From Candidatus Fermentibacterota bacterium (GTDB lineage: Bacteria > Fermentibacterota > Fermentibacteria > Fermentibacterales > JCC-6), in contig WJMA01000051.1 of the NCBI GenBank assembly GCA_014728175.1, positions 7,279 to 71,278 of the forward strand: DNA of 64,000 nucleotides, in the 5' to 3' direction. The notes beneath the pieces were generated by a model. The model worked only from the letters and a program-made list of their open reading frames with translations, made no database searches and was not told where the DNA came from. Of this stretch, positions 14,989-26,223 are shown one piece after another. Position 1 is the first letter of the stretch. Each line of letters begins with the position of its first letter. A program made the position numbers and the translations under genes.

Positions 14989-17172
14989 TCAGCGGGCCAG
15001 CACGAAGCTTCTCACCCGACTCCCGGAGGGCGCGTCCAGCCTGCAGAAGTACAGCCCGTCGGGAGCAGGGCTGCCATCCCGCAGGGTGCAGGACCAGTGC
15101 AGCGTGGAGGCCCCGCGATCCGGGGTGCCCAGATCGGCGACGCACCTGCCGGCCAGGTCGTAGATGGCCACTCTGGCGGCTCCGGCGTCGGCGGGGGCTA
15201 ACACCACCGGTACGGCTGCCCAGGCCCCGGCGGGGTTGGGGGAAACATGGCCCAGAGTGGTGGCCCGTCTTCCCGCGACCTCGGCCCGGGAGTCAGCCAC
15301 CCCTACGGTGACCAGTGCGTACTCCGCCTCGGAGGGCCAGCTGGGCCCGAAGTCCGGATCGATGCCCACCGCCCTGTACCAGTACTCGCCGTCGGCATGG
15401 CCGGTGAAGCTGTAGGAGTTGGTAAGTATGTTCTTGTCCACGTATGTGTTGCTGTCCCAGGTCTCCACCTTGATATCGTCGATGTACAGGTCGCAGCTGC
15501 TTCCGTAGCTGGTCCAGCGGAAGTTGAGGGTCTCCCCGGCCCACTCGTCCAGCTCGTGAATGTTCCTCCTCCAGTTCCAGTCGTCTCTGGTAAAGGTCTG
15601 GAGGTAGTACCAGTTGCTTCCTCCGTCGGGGGAAACCTCGAAGGCCCCCTGTTGGCTTCCGTTGGTTATGTCGTAGTAGGCCCAGAAGCTCATCCTGCCG
15701 CCGCCGCCCGCCGGAATGCTCGCGGTCTCCGTCCAGGTCATGCTTCCGGTTCCGTCGGAGACGTAGCACAAGGAGGGTGAGTGGGACTGGGAGGAGGTCA
15801 TGGACCAGTTGTCCAGGGTGAACGGACCGGTCTCGCCGTTATCGTCCAGCAGGACCTGGTAACCTTCCAGCTCCTCCAGGGCGTAGCTGTCGGCGGTGGG
15901 AACCTCGCTCCAGCTTACCGTGAAGTTGGAGCCCACCTCCCCTATCGGGTCCATCTCGGGGATATCGGGCTCGTGGGGATCCTTGGGGCATCCGGCCAGC
16001 AGGACGGTCACCAGATAGCTGCGGAGGTTCCTGCGGGTAAGCTTCACCACCTCGGTGGCGCCGGGCCAGAATCCGGCGAAGTCCGCCCCGGTCTCATGGT
16101 TCCAGCTCATCGCGTCGTACAGGGCGTAGGCATGGTCCCGGGTGTTGCCCGAGCTGTAGTAGTTGATCTGGGCGGAGGGCCCGTGCAGCTCTCCGGTGGC
16201 CCACTGGACCATCATCTCCCCGGAAGTGTCGTACTCGGCGGCGTCCGTGGTGGGGTCGTCGGTCCAGCCCCAGGGATAGATCAGGATGTTTCCATAGGAG
16301 TGAGTGGAGTGCATCTGGGCGGGGGGATGGTCCTGCCAGAAGGCGTCTATGTTGGAGGCCTCCGGCTCGCTGAGCGGAGCGGTGCCCCGGTAGGTCTCAG
16401 AGCCGGGGCTGCCGCTGGAGCCGGCCCCTCCCCAACCCACCGACCAGTTCCGGTTGAGGTCGACTCCGTAGACGCCGCCACCGTTATCTCTTCGGTTCTT
16501 CCGCCACATTCCGCCGCCTCCGGGCGAGGTCTGCTCGTTGTAGTAGTAACCGTCGGGATTGTTGCAGGGCAGGCACCAGATCTCGCGGTTCTGAAGCACC
16601 CAGGTCGCCTGCAGGCCGCAGTAGCCCGGGCGGTCGTAATTCTCGCACAGCCATTCCATGAACGACCGTACGTTGCGCATCGTCGCCGGCTCCCGGGCAT
16701 GGATCAGCCCGTCGTACCAGGCGTTGGGAAGAGCCGGGTCGTCGTCGCCGAACACGTTGTTCTCCGAGATCTTCATAACCAGCTGGGGCCGGCCCTCTAT
16801 GGTGTTGCCTATGGAGGTGGCCGGGCTGGTAATGTCGGGATACGCCGAGTGCAGATCGTCCAGCCAGGTCTGGATCTCGTCCCAGGTCAAGAAGCCGCCC
16901 ATCTCCCGGTCACCGCATCGCCCCCGGTAGAAGCTCTCCAGGTCGTCTATCCTGGTCACGGTGATAAAGCCCTGCCGGTCCAGCATTCTTCTCTCGTAAT
17001 CGTTGGCTACGAAATCGACTCCCCCGTCTTCGTAGACGTGCACTATCTCCGGCCCGATGGCCTGGAATCTCAGCGCCTCCATCTGATCGACGGGCCTGAA
17101 GTACATAAGCGAGTACGTGTCGGCACCGGCCAACAGGGCCAACGTCACAACCAAAGTAAGGGCCAGTTTCAT
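14989..17172 (-). CDS. M14 family zinc carboxypeptidase with C-terminal T9SS sorting domain
   Basis: A signal peptide begins at MKLALTLVVTLALLAG. M14 motifs are present (HAREPAT, DLNRNW). The C-terminal ~80 aa (SPNPAG...IYDLAGRCVADL...PDGLYFCRL) match the Por-secretion C-terminal domain. The start was trimmed to the signal-peptide Met. Confidence 0.75.
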   Translation of the reverse strand: MKLALTLVVTLALLAGADTYSLMYFRPVDQMEALRFQAIGPEIVHVYEDGGVDFVANDYERRMLDRQGFITVTRIDDLESFYRGRCGDREMGGFLTWDEIQTWLDDLHSAYPDITSPATSIGNTIEGRPQLVMKISENNVFGDDDPALPNAWYDGLIHAREPATMRNVRSFMEWLCENYDRPGYCGLQATWVLQNREIWCLPCNNPDGYYYNEQTSPGGGGMWRKNRRDNGGGVYGVDLNRNWSVGWGGAGSSGSPGSETYRGTAPLSEPEASNIDAFWQDHPPAQMHSTHSYGNILIYPWGWTDDPTTDAAEYDTSGEMMVQWATGELHGPSAQINYYSSGNTRDHAYALYDAMSWNHETGADFAGFWPGATEVVKLTRRNLRSYLVTVLLAGCPKDPHEPDIPEMDPIGEVGSNFTVSWSEVPTADSYALEELEGYQVLLDDNGETGPFTLDNWSMTSSQSHSPSLCYVSDGTGSMTWTETASIPAGGGGRMSFWAYYDITNGSQQGAFEVSPDGGSNWYYLQTFTRDDWNWRRNIHELDEWAGETLNFRWTSYGSSCDLYIDDIKVETWDSNTYVDKNILTNSYSFTGHADGEYWYRAVGIDPDFGPSWPSEAEYALVTVGVADSRAEVAGRRATTLGHVSPNPAGAWAAVPVVLAPADAGAARVAIYDLAGRCVADLGTPDRGASTLHWSCTLRDGSPAPDGLYFCRLDAPSGSRVRSFVLAR

Positions 17173-17373
17173 GGCGCTCCTCCTCCATCCCGAGCATGAA
17201 AGCCTGCGTACCGCATAATATTCAAAAGGATAATCGGGATACATGGACCTCATGTCAAACCTGGGGTAAGGAGAGAAGTGTACACATTCGGCACCGAAGG
17301 TTTGCCCCGCCGGAGCCGGAGTGGCTATAACATTGAAAAGAACACGACGGAACAGCGCGGGAAGGAGTCCTTC

Positions 17374-19401
17374 ATGGACACGTTCAAGCAAAACATATCA
17401 AGAGGCATTCCCGACCGTTTGCCTCCGGAGCCGGAGTGGGACGACTCGGTCAGCCACGCCCCGTCCAGACCGGACGTGCTCACACCCCACCAGCGGATGC
17501 TGGCGGTATCCAACGCCCTGCGGTACTTCCCCCCCGAATGGCACCCGACCCTGGCCCCCGAGTTCGCCCGGGAGCTCAGTACCAGGGGGCGGATCTACAT
17601 GTACAGGTTCAGACCGGATTACGAGATGCGGGCCCGGCACATCGACGAATATCCCTGCAGATGCAGGCAGGCGGCGGCAATAATGCTGATGATCCAGAAC
17701 AATCTGGACCCTTCCGTTGCCCAGTACCCGCACGAGCTGGTCACCTACGGCGGTAACGGCACCGTCTTCCAGAACTGGGCCCAGTATTTGTTAACCATGC
17801 GTTACCTGTCGGAGATGACCGACGAGCAAACCCTGGTGATGAACTCCGGACACCCCATGGGCCTCTTCCCCTCCTCGAAGGACTCACCGAGAGCGGTGGT
17901 AAGCAACGGAATGGTCATACCCAACCACAGTACGATGGAGGACTACCACCGGATGGCCGCCCTGGGAGTAACCTCCTACGGCCAGATGACCGCGGGCAGC
18001 TACATGTACATAGGGCCTCAGGGAATAGTTCACGGCACCACCATCACCATGCTGGGAGCGGGCAGGAGGTATCTAGGCCTTTCCCCCGACGACGATCTCT
18101 CCGGCAAGCTCTTTGTCTCCTCCGGCCTGGGGGGGATGAGCGGGGCCCAGGCCAAGGCCTCGGTGATAGCCGGAGCGGTGGGGGTGATAGCCGAGGTGGA
18201 CCCGAAGGCGCTGCGCAAGAGGCTGGACCAGGGCTGGCTGCAGGAGGCCGAGAACGACCTGGACCGGATTCTGAGCAGGGTCGACACGGCTCTGAGCGAG
18301 AAGAGGCCGCTCTCTTTGGGATACAGGGGAAACGTGGTCGATCTATGGGAGGCCCTGGACCGCGAGGGATTCGAGGTGGATTTGGGAAGCGATCAGACCT
18401 CCCTGCACAACCCCTACAGCGGCGGATACTACCCGGTGGGCCTGACCATGGAGCAGAGCCGGGAGATGATGCGCAAAGACCCCCAGGGATTCAGGGAAGC
18501 GGTACACGAGTCCCTGCGTAGACAGGTCCGCGCCATAAACGGCCTTACCGATAGAGGAATGAGCTTCTGGGACTACGGCAACGCCTTCCTTCTCCAGTCT
18601 TCCCGGGCCGGGGCGGACATCACCCTGCCCGACGGCCACTTCCGCTATCCCTCCTACGTGGAGGACATCATGGGCCCCCTCTGCTTCGATTACGGCTTCG
18701 GCCCCTTCCGGTGGGTATGCACCTCCTGCGATCCCGCGGATCTGCGGCGGACGGACCGTATCGCGGCGTCGGTGCTGAAAGAGGCCTCGCAGAAGGCCGG
18801 ACCCCGAACCAGGCAACAGGTGGTGGACAACCTGCGATGGATAGAGCAGGCCGAGGAGAACGAGCTGGTAGTGGGTTCCCAGGCCCGTATCCTGTATGCG
18901 GACAGGGACGGCAGAAGACGGATAGCCGCCGCCTTCAACCGGGCCATAGCCGAGGGAAGCGTTTCCGCCCCCATCGTACTGGGGCGTGACCATCACGACA
19001 CCTCCGGTACAGACTCACCCTTCCGGGAGACCTCCAACATCTACGACGGAAGCATGTTCACGGCCGACATGGCGGTGCAGAACGTGATAGGGGACGCCTT
19101 CAGGGGAGCGACCTGGGTGGCTCTTCACAACGGAGGAGGTGTCGGCTGGGGAGAGGTCGTAAACGGCGGATTCGGCCTGGTCCTGGACGGAACCGAGAAG
19201 GCGGGTGAAAGGGCGGACCGGATGCTGTCCTGGGACGTAGCCAACGGCCTTGCCAGGAGGTCCTGGGCCGGCAACGAGGGAGCCCTCTACGCCGCGGCGG
19301 CGGCCGCCGACGGCGAGTCGGGAATGATAATCACGATGCCCAGCAAGGCCGGCCGGGGAATGGTCTCGGACGCGATCAGGGAAGCCTTCGGCGAGGGTTA
19401 G
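17374..19401 (+). CDS. hutU: Urocanate hydratase (urocanase)
   Basis: Long-form urocanase conserved throughout (GSYMYIGPQGIVHGT, GLGGMSGAQ, SNIYDGS). The start was taken at MDTFKQ. Confidence 0.9.
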   Translation: MDTFKQNISRGIPDRLPPEPEWDDSVSHAPSRPDVLTPHQRMLAVSNALRYFPPEWHPTLAPEFARELSTRGRIYMYRFRPDYEMRARHIDEYPCRCRQAAAIMLMIQNNLDPSVAQYPHELVTYGGNGTVFQNWAQYLLTMRYLSEMTDEQTLVMNSGHPMGLFPSSKDSPRAVVSNGMVIPNHSTMEDYHRMAALGVTSYGQMTAGSYMYIGPQGIVHGTTITMLGAGRRYLGLSPDDDLSGKLFVSSGLGGMSGAQAKASVIAGAVGVIAEVDPKALRKRLDQGWLQEAENDLDRILSRVDTALSEKRPLSLGYRGNVVDLWEALDREGFEVDLGSDQTSLHNPYSGGYYPVGLTMEQSREMMRKDPQGFREAVHESLRRQVRAINGLTDRGMSFWDYGNAFLLQSSRAGADITLPDGHFRYPSYVEDIMGPLCFDYGFGPFRWVCTSCDPADLRRTDRIAASVLKEASQKAGPRTRQQVVDNLRWIEQAEENELVVGSQARILYADRDGRRRIAAAFNRAIAEGSVSAPIVLGRDHHDTSGTDSPFRETSNIYDGSMFTADMAVQNVIGDAFRGATWVALHNGGGVGWGEVVNGGFGLVLDGTEKAGERADRMLSWDVANGLARRSWAGNEGALYAAAAAADGESGMIITMPSKAGRGMVSDAIREAFGEG

Positions 19402-19415
19402 AGCGGGGAAGGCTC

Positions 19416-20603
19416 TCAGTGGTCGCAGGCGTTGTCGCCCGCCTGCAGGTTTCCCTCCATGTATCTGCGGGCCAGCTCTTCGGGTGGGTCTTCCGGGAGC
19501 CCGCTTATCACTACCACGCCCGCCTCCTCCAGCATAGCCCTGGCCTTCCTCCCCAGACCGCCGGTAAGCAGAACGTCTACTCCCTTCTCGGAAAGCAGCC
19601 GTGGAAACGAACCCTCCTCGTGGGGGGGAGGGGCCGACCTTTCCGACTCCAGTATCTCCCTCTTCTCCGGGTCTGTGTCGTACATCACGAACTCCTCCGC
19701 CCTCCCGAAGTGACGGGACAACTTGCCTCCCGCCAGAGGAAGGGCGATCCTGACCCCCTTTCGGGGCTCGCTGGAGGGGGGAGCGGGCTCTTCGAGCGAA
19801 CCTTCCTCCATGGACCGGACGAGCCGTTCCAAAACGTCCTGGAAAGCCTCCGTATACGGGGTGTTCTCGTCGAAGTAGGCGAAGGGCCGGCCATGGTCTC
19901 CGGAATGGACTATGGCGGGGTCCACCGGGACCCTCCCCAGGAAAGGAACTCCCATCTCCGAGGCCATTCTCTCTCCTCCCCCGGTGCCGAAGAGGTCGGT
20001 CCGGTGGCCGCAGTTGGGGCAGACGAAGCCGGACATGTTCTCCACCACCCCCAGCACGGGCAGGGAGAGTTTCCGGCAGAACGTTATCGATCTGCGCACG
20101 TCGGAGGTGGAGAGGTCCTGGGGCGTTGTAACCAGCAGCGCTCCGGTGGGCTCGGGTATGAGCTGGGCCACGGAGAGCGGCTCGTCGCCGGTTCCGGGAG
20201 GGGAATCGACGATCAGGTAGTCCAGCTCGCCCCAGGCCACGTCCTCCAGAAGCTGCCTTATCACGTTCATCTTCATCGGGCCCCGCCAGATTACGGCGTC
20301 CGTTCTCTGGGGTAGCATGAAATCGATCGATACGACCTTCAACTCGCCCAGGGTGGCGGGAAGCACCCTGTCGCCTTCCACGGAGAGAGTGGTTCCCTCC
20401 AGACCCAGAAGCTTGGGTATGCTGGGCCCGTGGAAATCGGAGTCCAGAAGTCCCACCTTGTGACCCTGAAGAGAAAGTGACAACGCCAGGTTGGCCGCCA
20501 CCGTGCTCTTTCCGACCCCGCCCTTTCCGGACAGCACCATTATGGTCCTGTCGGCGGGAGATTTCTCCAGCCTGTACTCCCGCTTCTTTCCTTCCCTGTT
20601 CAT
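19416..20603 (-). CDS. apbC: Mrp/NBP35 (ApbC) Fe-S cluster carrier ATPase fused to a C-terminal NifX/NafY-like (dinitrogenase FeMo-cofactor-binding fold) domain
   Basis: ParA/Mrp P-loop GKGGVGKST and the CPNC motif form the ApbC part. The C-terminal ~110 aa (IALPLAGGKLSRHFGRAEEFVMYD...VLLTGGLGRKA) match the Nitro_FeMo-Co fold. The start was taken at MNREGKK. Confidence 0.75.
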   Translation of the reverse strand: MNREGKKREYRLEKSPADRTIMVLSGKGGVGKSTVAANLALSLSLQGHKVGLLDSDFHGPSIPKLLGLEGTTLSVEGDRVLPATLGELKVVSIDFMLPQRTDAVIWRGPMKMNVIRQLLEDVAWGELDYLIVDSPPGTGDEPLSVAQLIPEPTGALLVTTPQDLSTSDVRRSITFCRKLSLPVLGVVENMSGFVCPNCGHRTDLFGTGGGERMASEMGVPFLGRVPVDPAIVHSGDHGRPFAYFDENTPYTEAFQDVLERLVRSMEEGSLEEPAPPSSEPRKGVRIALPLAGGKLSRHFGRAEEFVMYDTDPEKREILESERSAPPPHEEGSFPRLLSEKGVDVLLTGGLGRKARAMLEEAGVVVISGLPEDPPEELARRYMEGNLQAGDNACDH

Positions 20604-20681
20604 AGCCAGTCCTTTCAGTAGGCTCTTCGTTTGCGATTCGCTAAATATACAGCCTGCCCCCGGCAAGGCCAGATCGCGGCG

Positions 20682-20710
20682 TTGACACCGCGAACCGGCT
20701 CCTCTATCTT
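20682..20710 (+). promoter_or_regulatory. Sigma70-like promoter (TTGACA-17nt-TATCTT) driving the Cys-rich leader ORF
   Basis: The -35 element TTGACA is at 20682-20687, followed by a 17-nt spacer and the -10 element TATCTT at 20705-20710. Confidence 0.3.
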
Positions 20711-20732
20711 CGCGCCTAGCGAAAGGACCGAG

Positions 20733-20786
20733 ATGATCAATTGCCTCTGTTGTTACTGTGTGAAAGGAGGAACGGCGGGGGCTTAG
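20733..20786 (+). CDS. Candidate Cys-rich leader peptide MINCLCCYCVKGGTAGA (17 aa)
   Basis: ATG at 20733 with an AAGGA Shine-Dalgarno 5 nt upstream. Four Cys codons fall within codons 4-9. The stop TAG is at 20784, 27 nt before a rho-independent terminator and ~200 nt before cysteine synthase. Confidence 0.35.
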   Translation: MINCLCCYCVKGGTAGA

Positions 20787-20812
20787 TGCATCCTACGGAT
20801 GAGGAACGGAAG

Positions 20813-20836
20813 ACCCGCCGGGAGGCGGGTTTTTTT
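20813..20836 (+). terminator. Rho-independent terminator (stem ACCCGCC/GGCGGGT, loop GGGA, T7 run)
   Basis: A 7-bp GC stem plus TTTTTTT on the plus strand. The upstream CGGCGGG (20773-20779) could pair with the 5' arm to form an antiterminator. Confidence 0.5.
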
Positions 20837-20990
20837 CTTATACGCTCGATACGGCAGTGAAGGGAGACAGCGTGGCCGCGATGAAAGTCCTTCTGATACC
20901 CGACGCACCGCCGCGCTCCGTCTGTCCGCGGCACGGACATTCGGTACGAAGTAGGCGGTAATCAACATCTTACCATAGGGAGAAGGAAGG

Positions 20991-21896
20991 ATGATCGGCA
21001 GCAAAGCAAAAAAACGGACCATGGCGGCGAGACCGGAAGGAAGGGTTTCCCTTCCCACCCCGGTGGTGGACATCACCCCGCCAGGGCTGCCCACGGGCGT
21101 AACCGTGCTGGCCAAGCTGGAAGGGCTCAATCCGGGCCTGTCGGTGAAAGACCGCGTGGCCAGATACATGGTGGACCGCGCCCTGAGGGACGTGGAGGAT
21201 CCGGCCTCCGTCACGCTGGTGGAGGCGTCCTCGGGAAACACCGCGATGGGAGTCGCCCTGGCCTCCAGGGAGATGGGAACCAACGCCTGGCTGTTCGTAC
21301 CCGAGGGCTCGGGTGCATCCCGGATCAAGAGAATAGCGGACCTGGGAGCCAGGCTTACCCTGACTCCCTCCGGGGAAGGAACCACCGGAGCGCAGAGAAG
21401 AGCGGTAAAGGCGGCCTCGAAGAACGATCGCACGCATTACCTCGGCCAGCACGAGCGGACCGACAACCTGATGGCCCACCTCACCTCCACCGGACCGGAG
21501 GCATGGTCGCAGACGTCCGGCAAGGTGGATATGTTCGTGGCCGGGGTGGGAACCGGTGGTACCCTGCTGGGAGTGGGCAGGTATCTCGGAGAGCGGCTGG
21601 AGAACCTGGAGCTGGTGGGCGTGGTTCCGGCCGAGGGAAGCAACATTCCCGGTCTGCGTTTCCACGACCCTGACACGGTGAGGTTGCACGGCCTGGTGGA
21701 CCCCGGGATACTGCTCAGGGTGACCGAGCAGGAGGCAACTCTTTGGAAACGGTGGATAGAGAGCAATCTATCGGTTCCGGTGGGTCCCTCCAGCGGAGCG
21801 GCAATGGCGGGAGTGGTAAAGGCCGCTCGGGATCTGGACCGGGGGGTGGTGCTCACCATCTTTCCCGACCACGGCTTCAACTACCTGGGCGGATAG
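20991..21896 (+). CDS. cysK: Cysteine synthase family protein (PLP-dependent, CysK/CysM-like)
   Basis: SVKDR PLP-lysine motif and GNTAMG glycine loop; 301 aa. A GGAAGG Shine-Dalgarno precedes the ATG. Confidence 0.8.
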   Translation: MIGSKAKKRTMAARPEGRVSLPTPVVDITPPGLPTGVTVLAKLEGLNPGLSVKDRVARYMVDRALRDVEDPASVTLVEASSGNTAMGVALASREMGTNAWLFVPEGSGASRIKRIADLGARLTLTPSGEGTTGAQRRAVKAASKNDRTHYLGQHERTDNLMAHLTSTGPEAWSQTSGKVDMFVAGVGTGGTLLGVGRYLGERLENLELVGVVPAEGSNIPGLRFHDPDTVRLHGLVDPGILLRVTEQEATLWKRWIESNLSVPVGPSSGAAMAGVVKAARDLDRGVVLTIFPDHGFNYLGG

Positions 21897-21897
21897 A

Positions 21898-22611
21898 ATG
21901 ACCTCCATCCGTTACCGGACCGTCCTGTTCGATCTGGACGGAACCCTGCTGGACTACGCCTCGGCCCAGCGTGACGCGGTGGCCCTGGCCCTGGAAGAGC
22001 TGGCCGGAGATACGCAGGAGCCGGAGAGGTACCTGGCGCTGGTCCGTTCCGACCAGGTCCAGGCGATGGAGGCATGCCGGCCCGATGCCCCTGCCCTGGA
22101 CTCCCGCGAGATTCGGGAAGCATTCGAAAGACAAGACGCAGGGCTCGATCCCCTCTCGTTTCTGCCCGTCTACTACCGGATGCTCTCCGGCCGTTCCCGG
22201 ACCATAGACGGAGCCCTGGAGCTGCTGTCCTCGCTGAGCGAGAGATGTGGTCTGGGCGTGGTCTCCAACGGGCCGGGGTCGGTGCAGAGGCCCCGGTTGG
22301 TGTCGTCGGGGATCATGGAGTACCTGGGCGTCCTGGTTCTGAGCTGCGAGGTGGCATTGGCCAAGCCCGACCCGGCTATACTGGGCTATGCCCTGGCCCT
22401 CCTGTCGGCCGAAAGGGACCATACCCTCTTCGTGGGAGACAGCGTGGGAAGCGACATGCCGTCGGCGTCGGCGGCGGGCATCGATTTCGTGTTGTTCTCG
22501 AAGGACGGCACCTTCCCGGAAAATACAGATGCGGTGGCGGAGTGCGCCGATCTGGCGGACATCCGACGGCTGGTCCTCGGCGAAGTTGACCCGGGCCTCG
22601 GCAGCGAGTAG
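21898..22611 (+). CDS. HAD-superfamily hydrolase, subfamily IA
   Basis: LFDLDGTLLD motif I and a downstream GDS motif; 237 aa. Begins 2 nt after the cysK stop. Confidence 0.7.
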   Translation: MTSIRYRTVLFDLDGTLLDYASAQRDAVALALEELAGDTQEPERYLALVRSDQVQAMEACRPDAPALDSREIREAFERQDAGLDPLSFLPVYYRMLSGRSRTIDGALELLSSLSERCGLGVVSNGPGSVQRPRLVSSGIMEYLGVLVLSCEVALAKPDPAILGYALALLSAERDHTLFVGDSVGSDMPSASAAGIDFVLFSKDGTFPENTDAVAECADLADIRRLVLGEVDPGLGSE

Positions 22612-22653
22612 CGTTCTGTCGATGAACAGCGACTCAACACTAAGGAGGGTGGA

Positions 22654-23148
22654 ATGAGGCTCTGTCTGCTAGCAGCGATGGTGCTTTCCCTGGCGGTCTT
22701 CGCCGGGGTAACGGAGTTCGGCATTCACGGGGGCGCGTTTCTTCCCACCGGAGACGCCTCGGACGCTTACAACATCTCCTTCGGAGCGGGAGGAAACGTA
22801 CTGGCTCACATGGCCACCTACGCCATAGAGGGCAGCATAAGCTACGTCTTCCTCAGCCCGGAGTACGACTGGGACGAGTTCTCGGCATACATGGTCCCGG
22901 TACTCGGTGGTATCAGGACTTACACCGGAAACATCTTCTACGGCGGCGGGCTGGCGCTTCACTACGTCCATGTAAGCTGGGAGGAGTCCGGCGAGGAGTG
23001 GGATGACAGCAACAGCGAGCTGGGCGCCTACGGAAACATAGGAACCATTCTGGGCACCGGAGGCACCGACGTCGAGATCAGCGGAAAGCTCCACTGGATC
23101 GACTTCGACAACTTCTGGATCGGCGCCACCGGAGGCATATACTTCTAG
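22654..23148 (+). CDS. Small outer-membrane beta-barrel protein (OmpW/OmpA-barrel-like)
   Basis: Signal peptide MRLCLLAAMVLSLAVFAG, alternating Gly/aromatic beta-strand pattern, and a C-terminal Phe. Confidence 0.55.
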   Translation: MRLCLLAAMVLSLAVFAGVTEFGIHGGAFLPTGDASDAYNISFGAGGNVLAHMATYAIEGSISYVFLSPEYDWDEFSAYMVPVLGGIRTYTGNIFYGGGLALHYVHVSWEESGEEWDDSNSELGAYGNIGTILGTGGTDVEISGKLHWIDFDNFWIGATGGIYF

Positions 23149-23173
23149 GCCGGAGCCGATTCGAACAGGGCGG

Positions 23174-23197
23174 AGCCGGGATCACCACTTCCCGGCT
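23174..23197. terminator. Possible bidirectional hairpin terminator between convergent genes
   Basis: A 7-bp stem AGCCGGG/CCCGGCT with a 10-nt loop lies between the OMP gene (+) and the MFS gene (-). The flanking T-rich tract is weak. Confidence 0.3.
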
Positions 23198-23206
23198 CCA
23201 TTTCTA

Positions 23207-24463
23207 TCAATCGACCAGCCCCGCCTCTCTCCTCCTGGCGTAGCGACCGAGGAACAACATGCCCGACAGGGCGAACAGGCAGGTGGAGAAGATGAAGGGG
23301 GCGGTGTAGCCGAGATGCTGCAGTATCTGGCTGCCCAGGATCGGGGCGAACAGACCCCTCAGCGCGGTTGCCGTAACGTGCAGGCCCTGGTAGGTGGCCG
23401 CCTGGTCGGAGGGAGCGAAGCTCATGCTGGACAGGTTCCAGGAAACGTTTATCCCGGCTATTCCTATAGCGAAGAAGCAGTAGGAAGCGTAGAACAGGAA
23501 GATGCCGATCGAAGGAAGCCAGCCTCCGGCGGCCATTACCAGGGGATAGAGAGCCAACACCAGCACTATTATGCCGGTGAACCTGAAGGGGTGGATCCTC
23601 TCCACCTTCGCCCCTAAGAACGGGCCCAGGAAAACCAGCCCCAGTTGTCCGATCACTCCCTTCGCGGTGGCGTACTGCTCGTAGGACAGACCCAGCTGGT
23701 CCCGGGCGAAGAACGGGATCGCGGGAAGAACGGCCTGAAAGGCTATTCCGTACAGCATGAAGTAGCATTCGAACCGGGCGAACTCCCGGTCCCGGTTGAA
23801 GACCCTCCACAGGCTGCCGAAGAAGTGCGCCACGCCTTTGCCCGCATGCTCCAGACGCGGGGAGGCCCTCATGCCCCGGGCCATGGCGGCGAAGAAGAAG
23901 GCCTGACCGGCCCCGAACAGGGCCTCTACCAGGAACGCTATCCTATATAGATCGAAATCCACGTCCAGCAGCGCTCCGACCAGCATGCTGGAGGGCAGGC
24001 TGATCAGGTTCCTTACGCTCATCGACCAACCGAACAGGCTGCCCCTGTGGCCCCTTTTGTAACGGTGCCTTATTATGGCGTTTTGAACGGGGATGACCAC
24101 GCTGTTGGAGGCGAAGAACAGAAGCAACAGGCCCAGCATCACGTTGACGCTGGAGGACAGGAGCATCAACCCCAGGGGAAGCCTCATCAGCCCGCCGACC
24201 AGAACCGCCTTCGAATAGCATCCTCTACCGTCTATCCAGTGGGTGAGAAATACGGACAGGAAGTTGCTGACCGGCCATATCATGGTAAGAATGGTTATCT
24301 GCCATACGCTCGCCCCCAGGCCCTTGGCCGCGATGTACTCGTGGTTTACCAGCACCCCCCAGGCCACGGCCATCATCACGGCGGAGAGGATGTGAAGACG
24401 AAACGTCCCCCGCTCCTCCCGGGCCAGCTGCGGGGCCAGGAGGGTCCTGGTCCTGTTCAGCAT
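23207..24463 (-). CDS. MFS transporter
   Basis: About 12 hydrophobic helices and an MFS-like organisation. The start was taken at MLNRTRT. Confidence 0.7.
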   Translation of the reverse strand: MLNRTRTLLAPQLAREERGTFRLHILSAVMMAVAWGVLVNHEYIAAKGLGASVWQITILTMIWPVSNFLSVFLTHWIDGRGCYSKAVLVGGLMRLPLGLMLLSSSVNVMLGLLLLFFASNSVVIPVQNAIIRHRYKRGHRGSLFGWSMSVRNLISLPSSMLVGALLDVDFDLYRIAFLVEALFGAGQAFFFAAMARGMRASPRLEHAGKGVAHFFGSLWRVFNRDREFARFECYFMLYGIAFQAVLPAIPFFARDQLGLSYEQYATAKGVIGQLGLVFLGPFLGAKVERIHPFRFTGIIVLVLALYPLVMAAGGWLPSIGIFLFYASYCFFAIGIAGINVSWNLSSMSFAPSDQAATYQGLHVTATALRGLFAPILGSQILQHLGYTAPFIFSTCLFALSGMLFLGRYARRREAGLVD

Positions 24464-24516
24464 GGGTTGGATCTGCGGGAAGAAGGCCACGGGAAACCGT
24501 ACCTTTCGGGCCGCCT

Positions 24517-25140
24517 CTAGGGCCGGTAATCTATGATGTTCTTTTCGGCCAGAGCGACCAGTATCCTCTCCGCGCCCTCCTCGGGCGAGAGGACGTCGGT
24601 ATCCAAGACCAGCTCAGGATGTAGAGGCTCCTCGTACGGCGCGCTTATGCCGGTGAAGGAAGGTATCTCGCCAGACCGGGCCTTGGCGTACAATCCCTTG
24701 GGGTCACGCTCTTCGGCCACCTCCAGCGGCACCTTCACGTAGACCTCCAGGAAGTCGTCTTCCCCGCGTATGGATCGGGCGAAATCCCGGTCCTCCCGGT
24801 AGGGGCTTATGAAGGCCAGGATGTTGACCACCCCGAAGGAGCTGAACAGCTTGGCCACCTCCGCGATCCGGCGGATGTTCTCCTTGCGGTCCTCCGGAGA
24901 GAAGCCCAGGTCGCGGTTGAGGCCGTGCCTGACGTTGTCCCCGTCCAGAATCGCGGTCAGCACGCCCATATCGTGTAGCCTTGCGGCCAGGGCGTCGGCG
25001 ATGGTGGACTTGCCCGAGCCGGAGAGGCCGGTCAGCCAGACGGTGGCACCCCGGTGCCCCAGCAGCCTTTCTCTGTCCGCCCTTGTGACATGGTGATGAT
25101 GCCAGGTTATGTGTTGGCTCTTGGGATCGTCTTCCAACAT
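24517..25140 (-). CDS. cysC: Adenylyl-sulfate (APS) kinase
   Basis: Walker A motif GLSGSGKST and CysC-family conservation. The start was trimmed to MLEDD; the ORF-track 5' extension has no support. Confidence 0.85.
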
Positions 25141-25317
25141 GGTTCCCCCATGGGTGAGGTACTTACTCGTCCTGTTTCTTCGGCGCAAACCGCGATAACA
25201 TAAGAAACAACCGGCTGCAGACGCTAACTCTGAACCGGAAGGGAGCTCGTCTTGCTGAACCGCGACCTGATCCGAAAGAACCTGGGAAGCTGTCTGACCG
25301 ATACGTCCGACCTGGGA

Positions 25318-26223
25318 ATGCCGGGGCTGAGGAAAGGTAAGGTCCGCGACGTTTACGACCTCGGGAACCGGCTTCTTATGGTGGCCACCGACAGGCAGAG
25401 CGCCTTCGACAGGGTGCTGGCCGCCGTACCTTTCAAGGGCCAGGTTCTCAACCAGGTCAGCGCTTTCTGGTTCGAAGAGACCGAGGACGTGGTTCCCAAC
25501 CACGTTATCTCGGCTCCCGACCCCAACGCGATGCTGGCCCGCAAGTGCGACGTCTACCCCGTCGAATTCGTGGTAAGAGGCTACATAACCGGCAGCACCA
25601 GCACTTCCGCCTGGACGCTCTACGAAAAGGGAGAGCGCAACTTATGCGGAAACGTCCTGCCCGATGGGCTGCGGAAGAACCAGAAGCTGCCCCGGCCGAT
25701 TCTGACTCCCACCACCAAGAGCGAGGAGCACGACGAGCCGGTAACCCCCGAGCAGATAGTACAGCGGGGGCTGATGGATCCCGAAGAGTGGAACCGGGCC
25801 TCCCGTACGGCCATGGCCCTGTACCGGAGGGGCGTGGAGATAGCCTCCCGCCACGGCCTCATCCTGGTGGACACCAAGTACGAGATGGGGCGCGATGATG
25901 AGGGCAGGTTGCGCCTGGTGGACGAGATCCACACCCCGGACTCTTCCCGCTACTGGATAGCCGAGAGCTACCGGGAGCGGTTCGACCAGGGGCTTAAGCC
26001 GGAGAACATAGACAAGGAGTTCCTCAGGCTGTGGTTCGTGGACCATTGCGACCCTTACGCCGACGAGGTCCTGCCCGAGCCGCCGGAGGATCTGGTGGTG
26101 GAGCTATCCTTCCGATACGTACAGCTCTACGAGATGATTACGGGCCGGGAGTTCCAACCCGCCGAGACCGAGGATCCGTTGGGAAGACTTCGCAGAAGCC
26201 TGGGTCGGGAGGGTCTTATCTAG
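25318..26223 (+). CDS. purC: Phosphoribosylaminoimidazole-succinocarboxamide (SAICAR) synthase
   Basis: KGKVRDVY and ATDRQSAFD motifs of PurC. The ATG at 25318 gives a typical N-terminus; an alternative TTG at 25252 is possible. Confidence 0.8.

Follow-up and report, generated by a model that had tools for sequence, protein, structure and literature searches.

A putative cysteine-sensing leader-peptide attenuator upstream of a divergent cysM-like gene in a Fermentibacterota bacterium

Within a 64,000-nucleotide (nt) stretch of a Candidatus Fermentibacterota genome (GenBank assembly GCA_014728175.1, contig WJMA01000051.1, positions 7,279 to 71,278; hereafter the window, with position 1 as its first letter), we analyzed the leader of a cysM-like gene (20991-21896, forward strand), which encodes a pyridoxal phosphate (PLP)-dependent, 301-residue enzyme of the CysK/CysM family. 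We conclude that this leader likely attenuates transcription by a ribosome-mediated, leader-peptide mechanism, sensing charged tRNA-Cys and controlling the operon of the cysM-like gene and the HAD-family hydrolase gene behind it. It combines a cysteine-rich 17-codon upstream open reading frame (uORF1), an intrinsic terminator and a segment able to pair with the 5' arm of that terminator, an arrangement that recurs upstream of related genes. From this layout we infer that uORF1 is translated, that transcription and translation are coupled, that ribosomes stall at the Cys codons and that read-through responds to cysteine.

Anatomy of the leader

The leader begins with a sigma-70-like promoter on the forward strand (20682-20710), composed of a −35 element TTGACA (20682-20687), a 17-nt spacer and a −10 element TATCTT (20705-20710), as the original prediction had read it. 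These hexamers agree with consensus at 10 of 12 positions and constitute the sole promoter-like site on either strand between 19000 and 23000; the same scan returned no further sigma-70-like promoter between the terminator and cysM. Transcription would start near 20717-20719. A Shine-Dalgarno-like (SD) GAAAGGA (20721-20727) precedes the ATG of uORF1 (20733) by 5 nt, placing the start codon, from the sequence, about 22-23 nt past the −10 hexamer with the SD in between. uORF1 (20733-20786, forward strand, TAG at 20784) would encode the leader peptide MINCLCCYCVKGGTAGA through the codons ATG ATC AAT TGC CTC TGT TGT TAC TGT GTG AAA GGA GGA ACG GCG GGG GCT TAG. The four cysteines that had been reported in codons 4-9 are found at codons 4, 6, 7 and 9 (TGC 20742-20744, TGT 20748-20750, TGT 20751-20753 and TGT 20757-20759), such that Cys6 and Cys7 form a consecutive TGT TGT upstream of a CysK/M-family gene.

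Such a density of Cys codons is rare by either of two measures. The probability of at least four Cys in 16 codons is 1.2e-3 by base composition and 1.5e-5 by the Cys frequency (0.98%) of eight neighboring genes. Across both strands of the window we counted seven Cys-dense short open reading frames (ORFs), and uORF1 is the only one followed by a T-run.

That T-run belongs to an intrinsic terminator (20813-20836, forward strand), composed of segment 3 (ACCCGCC, 20813-20819), a GGGA loop, segment 4 (GGCGGGU, 20824-20830) and a U7 tract (20830-20836), which ends 154 nt before the cysM start. While a consensus terminator scan did not list this terminator, a separate scan and the folds described below recover it; extension of the stem into the T-run probably caused the miss. 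Upstream of it, within the last codons of uORF1, lies segment 2 (ACGGCGGGGGC, 20772-20782), whose core CGGCGGG (20773-20779), already noted for its ability to pair with the terminator's 5' arm, complements CCCGCCG (20814-20820) exactly. This antiterminator stem would enclose an inner hairpin, CAUCC-UAC-GGAUG (20789-20801). Segment 2 has a second, alternative partner in segment 1 (GCCUCUGUUGU, 20743-20753), which spans the codons for Cys4 through Cys7, and the predicted helix between them is a possible anti-antiterminator or pause hairpin. Thus, the comparison with Trp, His, Leu and Thr leaders drawn in the original prediction is supported by the anatomy and by the relatives described below, although that description was incomplete in having missed the pairing of the Cys codons with segment 2.

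The choice of Cys codon is itself unusual. The eight neighboring genes (14989-25503) contain 5 TGT and 28 TGC codons; three of the four Cys codons of uORF1 are TGT, as is the Cys codon (20923-20925) of a second small ORF, uORF2, that follows the terminator. This preference may come from G-U pairing in the helix of segments 1 and 2 (the 1:2 stem) or from selection for a slowly read codon.

Alternative pairings and their proposed coupling to translation

We evaluated the leader by folding it as a whole, in its separate helices and as a nascent transcript. For the 132-nt leader as a whole, the folding energy is −54.8 kcal/mol (z = −3.9). The 1:2 hairpin reached −20.2 kcal/mol (z = −5.2), with none of 200 shuffles as good. 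For the two conformations that had been proposed for comparison, we obtained −20.9 kcal/mol for the 2:3 antiterminator (z = −2.3, 4 of 200 shuffles as good) and −18.3 kcal/mol for the 3:4 terminator (z = −4.5, 0 of 200), the latter bearing out the strong terminator originally described. As predicted by these folds, segments 1 to 4 give a trp-type set of 1:2, 2:3 and 3:4 pairings that are mutually exclusive and near-isoenergetic.

To represent the state in which a choice between these pairings would be made, nascent-RNA folds were ended at 20823, before the 3' arm of the terminator, and the ribosome was modeled as masking positions −15 to +12 relative to the A-site codon, a footprint size taken from general knowledge. 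Without a ribosome, the 1:2 hairpin forms and segment 3 is single-stranded. With the mask at Cys7 or Cys9, the 2:3 antiterminator forms around the CAUCC/GGAUG hairpin, and a ribosome placed on the stop codon covers segment 2. Spacing along the RNA agrees with these outcomes: the last Cys codon begins 16 nt before segment 2, leaving that segment just beyond a stalled ribosome, and the stop codon begins 5 nt past the segment 2 core, which puts the core well within the footprint of a terminating ribosome.

Under the mechanism we propose, transcription would begin near 20718 and uORF1 would be translated while RNA polymerase is still transcribing the leader. When Cys-tRNA is plentiful, the ribosome would reach the TAG at 20784 with its footprint over segment 2 (20772-20782), leaving segments 3 and 4 to pair, and a ~119-nt transcript would be released by the terminator at the U7 tract. 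Under a shortage of Cys-tRNA, the ribosome would stall at Cys codon 4, 6, 7 or 9, occupying segment 1 and exposing segment 2, which could then pair with segment 3 once this has emerged; no terminator would form, and transcription would read through into uORF2, cysM and the HAD gene. With no ribosome on the leader, the 1:2 and 3:4 pairings would both form and transcription would terminate.

Conservation among close relatives

Related loci were fetched from genomes, metagenomes and assemblies by searching for relatives of the enzyme. Its closest named relatives are found in Candidatus Fermentibacteria metagenome-assembled genomes (MAGs), at 46-50% identity, which marks the host as a poorly sampled, uncultured bacterium of Fermentibacteria-like kind, and two contigs, L001 and L002, carry nearer counterparts (93% and 79% CysM identity) in the same divergent gene pair. 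In both, uORF1, its Cys codons and the terminator are kept, as one would hope to see in relatives if the original prediction were sound. The −35 and −10 hexamers are invariant, CGAAAGGA is kept at the SD, and the leader peptides read MRNCLCCSCVKGGTAGA in L001 and MSNCLCCCCGKGGTAGA in L002. All four Cys positions are retained, with L002 gaining a fifth. Among these close relatives, codon 9 changes synonymously from TGT to TGC, whereas codons 2, 8 and 10 change their amino acids.

Conservation is also uneven along the leader. Between L002 and the window, identity is 86% in the promoter/SD block, 85% in uORF1 and 87.5% in the terminator, compared with 58% in the spacer, 53-59% after the terminator and 64% on the MrpORP side. 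This selective conservation of the functional blocks, with Cys identity kept while other codons drift, supports function as judged from sequence. The 1:2 pairing is identical in the window, L001 and L002, and therefore no covariation for it can be seen among these close relatives; it is partly predicted in two more distant loci, L005 and L083.

Recurrence of the architecture in distant loci

Ten more distant loci (L003-L008, L083, L164, L166 and L167), from Ca. Fermentibacteria MAGs and similar contigs, encode enzymes with ~45-50% CysM identity. All ten carry a short Cys-codon ORF that is SD-led or near-leaderless, and in all ten a CCCGCC/GGCGGG terminator follows it by 26-35 nt. The peptides, MMIASAFCCCRESTVTG, MSTDHTICCCGESEATG, MAICCCGRTG, MTGSFERCCCACDREDIPAG and M..ACTCPDSGGDPQAG, with further distant peptides reading MITSMAVACTCPDSGGDPQAG, MIESIARTCTCPDSGGDPQAG, MMNRSMVRVYCTCHDSGGDPQAG, MTSDCCGDAM and MHRSCRERMR, are unrelated to that of the window apart from Cys; they contain 1-4 Cys codons, and lengths across the relatives run from 10 to 38 residues. 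In L005, L083, L006, L007 and L008, uORF1 is preceded by a site of the GAAAGG or GGAG type. In the relatives of the L003 type (L003 2720-2760, L004, L166 and L167), uORF1 begins ~11 nt after a −10-like TAGTCT that has TTGACC 17 nt upstream; judging by this spacing, these leaders may be leaderless or nearly so, like the Cys short ORFs of mycobacteria.

In all of these ten loci but L008, the 3' end of uORF1, or the first nucleotides past its stop, is complementary to the 5' arm of the terminator. The complementarity shifts with lineage-specific flanks: segment 2 and the terminator 5' arm read CGGCGGG and CCCGCCG in the window, AGGCGGGC and GCCCGCCT in L003, CCGGCGGGCT and AGCCCGCCGG in L007, CGGGTTGAC and GTCAACCCG in L083, and GAGGCGGG and CCCGCCTC in L006. 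Inner hairpins analogous to CAUCC-UAC-GGAUG are predicted in L005, L007 and L003, and the antiterminator hairpins of L005 and L007 beat their shuffles (z = −4.1 and −4.7).

We quantified these pairings in a 12-sequence alignment (A6) whose left ends were chosen to set segment 2 in register, which brings a bias; A6 replaced a plain MAFFT alignment (A3) that had left segment 2 out of register. The antiterminator is paired in 77.7% of cells, and none of 500 shuffles reaches its pairing or its covariation score. Its flanking pairs covary, as CG:4/AU:3/UG:1 and as CG:4/UA:2/UG:2. The terminator is paired in 98.9% of cells, with a CCCGCC/GGCGGG core that is invariant in the 12 loci and a closing pair that varies as AU:6/GC:5.

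Several observations weigh against attenuation. Once the complete terminator is present, the equilibrium fold is the terminator in every state, even with the ribosome masked at the Cys codons. The antiterminator that had been expected upon stalling thus appears in masked nascent RNA but not at equilibrium, and the switch must therefore be kinetic and co-transcriptional. The trp attenuator is likewise assumed to need kinetic folding. In the window, the 2:3 complementarity joins two G/C-rich stretches over just 7 bp; when the segment 2 window is mononucleotide-shuffled, 5% of trials match the 2:3 duplex (p = 0.05), and across 20 loci the median z of this duplex shuffle test is only −1.1. We do not rely on this test because the G/C-rich segments 2 and 3 give it low power. 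Covariation rests on the two flanking pairs, since the 6-bp core of both the antiterminator and the terminator helix is invariant across the group, in an alignment whose left ends we chose ourselves, and the 12 aligned sequences represent ~5-6 independent lineages. Folding predicts no 1:2 pairing for L006 or L007, L008 lacks a convincing antiterminator, and the number of uORF1 Cys codons is small in some relatives (one in L164; two in L003, L004 and L008).

Some of these observations would be expected if the terminator were conditional but set by an RNA-binding protein, a small RNA or an unrecognized metabolite-binding RNA, with the Cys codons incidental or serving a U/G-rich 1:2 stem. The Cys-codon stretch is one strand of a strong hairpin, so that selection at the RNA level could keep UGU/UGC-like sequence, and this explanation also accommodates the relatives with just one or two Cys codons and the failure of thermodynamics alone to switch the fold. 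We nevertheless consider it unlikely. Very different leaders, including those of L006 and L007 without a predicted 1:2 stem, retain Cys runs that lie in frame within short, SD-led ORFs; a single Cys codon shows a synonymous change where neighboring codons change amino acid; the enrichment described in the next section is limited to Cys among the 20 residues and to the sense strand; and neither the window nor 20 related loci contain an Rfam riboswitch or T-box match.

Cysteine-dense leaders upstream of more distant cysM-like genes

The combination of a Cys-dense short ORF and a terminator also precedes more distant cysM-like genes, whose products share 32-38% identity. Examples from Acidobacteriota MAGs, MTVCHACACCCLG.. 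and ..ECACCCPVRTC.. among them, come from leaders at L025 2767-2927, L030 2739-2906, L040 2834-2981, L071 2756-2931 and L072 2764-2900. Unassigned metagenome contigs (L134, L140, L141, L150, L158, L159 and L160), whose CysM proteins share at most 39-45% identity with any named locus, supply further examples, including MKTYPTTCACCCTTVSCGEVGV and ..AAMCCCCCANAARGGS. Two loci, L028 and L076, have a short ORF ..FEACPCRP.. in common.

We next compared the frequency of such ORFs with several controls. Upstream of cysM-like genes, Cys-dense short ORFs occur on the sense strand in 20 of 149 cases, compared with 4 on the reverse complement and a mean of 6.7 (maximum 12) in shuffled sequence. Amongst the 20 amino acids, only Cys exhibits a strand asymmetry (18 versus 4, binomial p = 0.004). 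When a strict terminator is also required, the 62 kb upstream of cysM contain 12 Cys-dense uORFs (19.4 per 100 kb) and the 1.76 Mb of other sequence contain 3 (0.17 per 100 kb), an enrichment of ~110-fold. Taken at the level of sequence, Cys leader attenuators upstream of cysM-like genes probably form a wider, polyphyletic class.

These counts bear on two further explanations. The idea that the short ORF, the terminator and the G/C-rich complementary runs came together by chance would draw on the ease with which G/C-rich segments pair in a genome of 61% GC, and on the duplex shuffle p of 0.05; we regard such a coincidence as extremely improbable in view of the Cys-count probabilities, the ~110-fold enrichment, the selective conservation of blocks and the recurrence in distant lineages.

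Alternatively, the unit could be an independent small gene, giving a stand-alone transcript of ~120 nt for a Cys-rich micropeptide (of metal or Fe-S chemistry) or a trans-acting small RNA, with cysM expressed separately. The unit does have its own promoter, SD and terminator and adjoins the gene of an Fe-S carrier, MrpORP (483 bits), and in Sinorhizobium the leader transcripts and peptides of trp attenuators are reported to act in trans (abstracts of PMC7298713 and bioRxiv 10.1101/606483). The peptides, however, have only Cys in common across relatives while varying from 10 to 38 residues, and a cysM-like gene in the same orientation always follows the unit directly, in the Acidobacteriota loci too. 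The lack of a promoter-like site between the terminator and cysM, and the overlap of the terminator with an alternative pairing, also argue against a separate gene, which we therefore judge improbable. A function in trans could exist in addition to attenuation in cis.

A second small ORF and a possible two-stage sensor

Directly after the terminator lies a candidate second Cys-codon leader, uORF2 (VAAMKVLLIPDAPPRSVCPRHGHSVRSRR, 20872-20961 from GTG to TAA, forward strand), with an SD AGGGAGA at 20861-20867 and its Cys codon TGT at 20923-20925. An SD-led uORF2 occupies this place in all 13 Fermentibacteria-type loci (L001 1470-1559, L002 1697-1801, L003 2895-3041, L004 2820-2972, L005 2868-3065, L083 2858-2932, L006 2591-2818, L007 317-553, L008 2861-3052, L164 2365-2544, L166 2398-2544 and L167 2391-2459, besides the window). 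It is always out of frame with cysM, ending 13-42 nt before the cysM start in four loci and overlapping that start by 3-118 nt in nine. We considered whether uORF2 is an N-terminal extension of CysM and rejected this because the frame differs in 13 of 13 loci.

Between the terminator and the cysM SD, the most conserved nucleotides are a CCTGT motif, read as Cys in the uORF2 frame (in TCTC, RTC or SVC contexts) and, in 10 of the 13 loci, separated from the cysM start by 59-68 nt. The SD region of the cysM-like gene itself (GGGAGAAGGAAGG, 20978-20990, forward strand) is predicted, in a three-sequence consensus fold, to pair with UCCUUCU at 20888-20894 inside uORF2 (a UCCUUCU:AGAAGGA helix), in a fold no better than shuffles (z = 0.34). 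Simulating a ribosome stalled in uORF2 increased the accessibility of the cysM SD in six of 13 loci and left it unchanged in seven. Together, the sequence features of uORF2 suggest a second, translational tier of Cys control on cysM.

One could go further and assign the main cysteine control to translation through uORF2, as in mycobacteria, or to initiation through a regulator, leaving the uORF1 terminator as a constitutive dampener. In its favor, uORF2 is present with a strong SD and its conserved Cys motif throughout the 13 related loci and often holds more Cys codons than uORF1, and the polycysteine short ORFs (sORFs) of mycobacteria work translationally (bioRxiv 10.1101/834739). It leaves the conserved antiterminator geometry and its covarying flanks unexplained, and the predicted unmasking of the cysM SD varies from locus to locus, as noted above; we find it very unlikely as a replacement for attenuation at uORF1, with which it is compatible as an added layer. 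All four explanations that we weighed are less consistent with the data than a leader-peptide attenuator.

More tentatively, it is possible that the leader is a two-stage cysteine sensor and that Cys leaders of the terminator type, placed before cysM-like genes, make up a widespread class, probably polyphyletic in origin and as yet unannotated. In the first stage, uORF1 would gate the intrinsic terminator; in the second, uORF2 would control the translation of cysM as well, through ribosome occlusion or SD unmasking. The class would span at least Fermentibacteria-like bacteria, Acidobacteriota (Vicinamibacterales and others) and unassigned lineages from sediment or groundwater. If this holds, Cys leaders could mark divergent PLP enzymes as real cysteine makers, and a functional uORF2 would provide an example of stacked ribosome-based sensors within one leader.

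Relation to known leaders

An Rfam leader scan, which had been suggested alongside the original prediction, returned no family at the gathering threshold in the whole window or in 20 related loci. At a relaxed E ≤ 10 on 20550-21100, the best match was Trp_leader (RF00513), at 14.8 bits compared with a 41-bit cut-off (E = 3.8), covering the terminator only. Because these scans gave nothing meaningful, we rejected a riboswitch, a T-box or a known leader family as the identity of the element.

The classical leader-peptide transcription attenuators are trpL, hisL, leuL, thrL, ilvL and pheL of Proteobacteria. As in these, the element in the window has a short SD-led leader ORF rich in codons for the end product (here Cys), predicted 1:2, 2:3 and 3:4 alternatives, an intrinsic terminator before the first structural gene, and a segment 2 that would be masked by a ribosome at the stop and free when the ribosome is stalled at the regulatory codons. 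It differs from them in its Cys regulatory codons, its Fermentibacteria-like host, the lack of sequence or Rfam kinship, and a second Cys-codon uORF after the terminator.

Cysteine-responsive attenuation has been shown experimentally at the level of translation for the leaderless polycysteine sORFs of M. smegmatis, the 'Cys ribulon' (Canestrari et al., bioRxiv 10.1101/834739; cited in PMC13236596 as Mol Microbiol 2020), where Ms5788A unmasks a downstream SD and no terminator is involved (bioRxiv 10.1101/834739). In common with this class, the window has an unannotated short ORF with a Cys run before a cysteine-metabolism operon and, as we infer here, stalling limited by Cys-tRNA as the principle. 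uORF1 has the at least two consecutive Cys codons of the mycobacterial sORFs; unlike them it is, judging by sequence, SD-led and not leaderless, and in place of terminator-free SD unmasking it has a strong terminator with an antiterminator behind it, in another phylum and with a non-homologous peptide. By analogy, uORF2 might resemble the mycobacterial mechanism.

Comparative genomics has also yielded candidate Cys leader peptides in Actinobacteria, with Cys runs near the stop, upstream of cys and cbs operons (Seliverstov et al. 2005, PMC1262725). No terminators were found there and Rho-dependent termination was suggested (PMC1262725), whereas the window has a canonical hairpin and U7 terminator together with an antiterminator. 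In Rhodobacterales, the uORFC-8-2 motif upstream of cysS has a uORF with two tandem Cys codons (at ~positions 14-15) within a stem, ahead of an intrinsic terminator (Brewer et al. 2021, PMC8632094), and is proposed to work as a ribosome-mediated attenuator that responds to Cys-tRNA (PMC8632094). A 10-residue leader with two Cys has likewise been predicted for cysS of Deinococcus deserti (PMC4007540). The window shares with uORFC-8-2, which we compared by its published description, a Cys-codon uORF within a (here predicted) stem and an intrinsic terminator after it; it differs from the cysS leaders in preceding a gene of the PALP cysteine-synthase family, in having Cys at positions 4, 6, 7 and 9, and in its taxa.

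In a literature search that left subscription journals largely uncovered, no terminator-based Cys leader turned up for a cysteine-synthase gene, and no element of this sort for Fermentibacteria or Acidobacteriota. Cysteine leader peptides are not new as a concept; the terminator form is, within that search, unreported for this gene and these lineages, and the leader in the window stands outside the Rfam leader families, the mycobacterial leaderless class and the cysS motif. It would extend the terminator-based design of trp-type attenuation to a cysteine biosynthetic gene and offers, for an uncultured candidate phylum, a first hypothesis on how sulfur amino-acid metabolism is regulated. The leader also serves as independent evidence that a divergent CysK/CysM-like enzyme below the family cut-off functions in cysteine supply. 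More generally, unannotated ORFs of 10-40 codons may be recognizable as sensors by their codon content and terminator context.

Gene surroundings

The original prediction had placed the leader upstream of a CysK/CysM-family gene, and the family assignment holds (Pfam PALP, 4.6e-53). The top NCBIfam model is cysM, at 202 bits and thus below its 394-bit cut-off, and from these matches the product is a divergent CysK/CysM-family enzyme. The HAD-family hydrolase gene (21898-22611, forward strand) is probably co-transcribed with the cysM-like gene because its start comes 1 nt past the cysM stop; its protein is nearest to YjjG-type nucleotidases, yet falls under their cut-off (110 versus 160 bits). 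Next on the same strand is a gene for a 164-residue protein (22654-23148) whose N terminus resembles a signal peptide and whose C-terminal residues read ..GGIYF; this protein has no match in Pfam or NCBIfam and is kept 3' of the HAD gene in relatives; judged by eye from its sequence, it looks like a small outer-membrane beta-barrel. It is followed on the reverse strand by an MFS transporter gene (23207-24490) and by an ORF of 328 residues (24517-25503) for adenosine 5'-phosphosulfate kinase (CysC). The CysC domain covers residues ~150-301 only and the N-terminal 150 residues have no family match, such that either this part belongs to no family or the true start is further downstream.

The order of MrpORP on the reverse strand, the cysM-like, HAD and 163-164-residue protein genes on the forward strand and MFS on the reverse strand is kept down to ~50% CysM identity (L163, L166 and L167/L168), several of the ten distant loci sharing it, and the order of cysM, HAD and the 163-residue protein is common to L163, L166 and L167. 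The MrpORP-type Fe-S cluster carrier gene (19416-20603, reverse strand), which exceeds its 450-bit cut-off and is divergent from the leader, places an Fe-S carrier beside a putatively Cys-regulated operon. Between this gene and the leader, the block TAAATATACAGCCTG (20640-20668) is identical in the window, L001 and L002; on the minus strand it reads CAGGCTGTATATTTA and holds an extended −10-like TGTATATT upstream of the MrpORP gene, whose promoter it probably is. A terminator scan flagged a hairpin with a T-rich tail on the minus strand here (20667-20653), and on sequence grounds this is more likely part of the MrpORP promoter region than a terminator.

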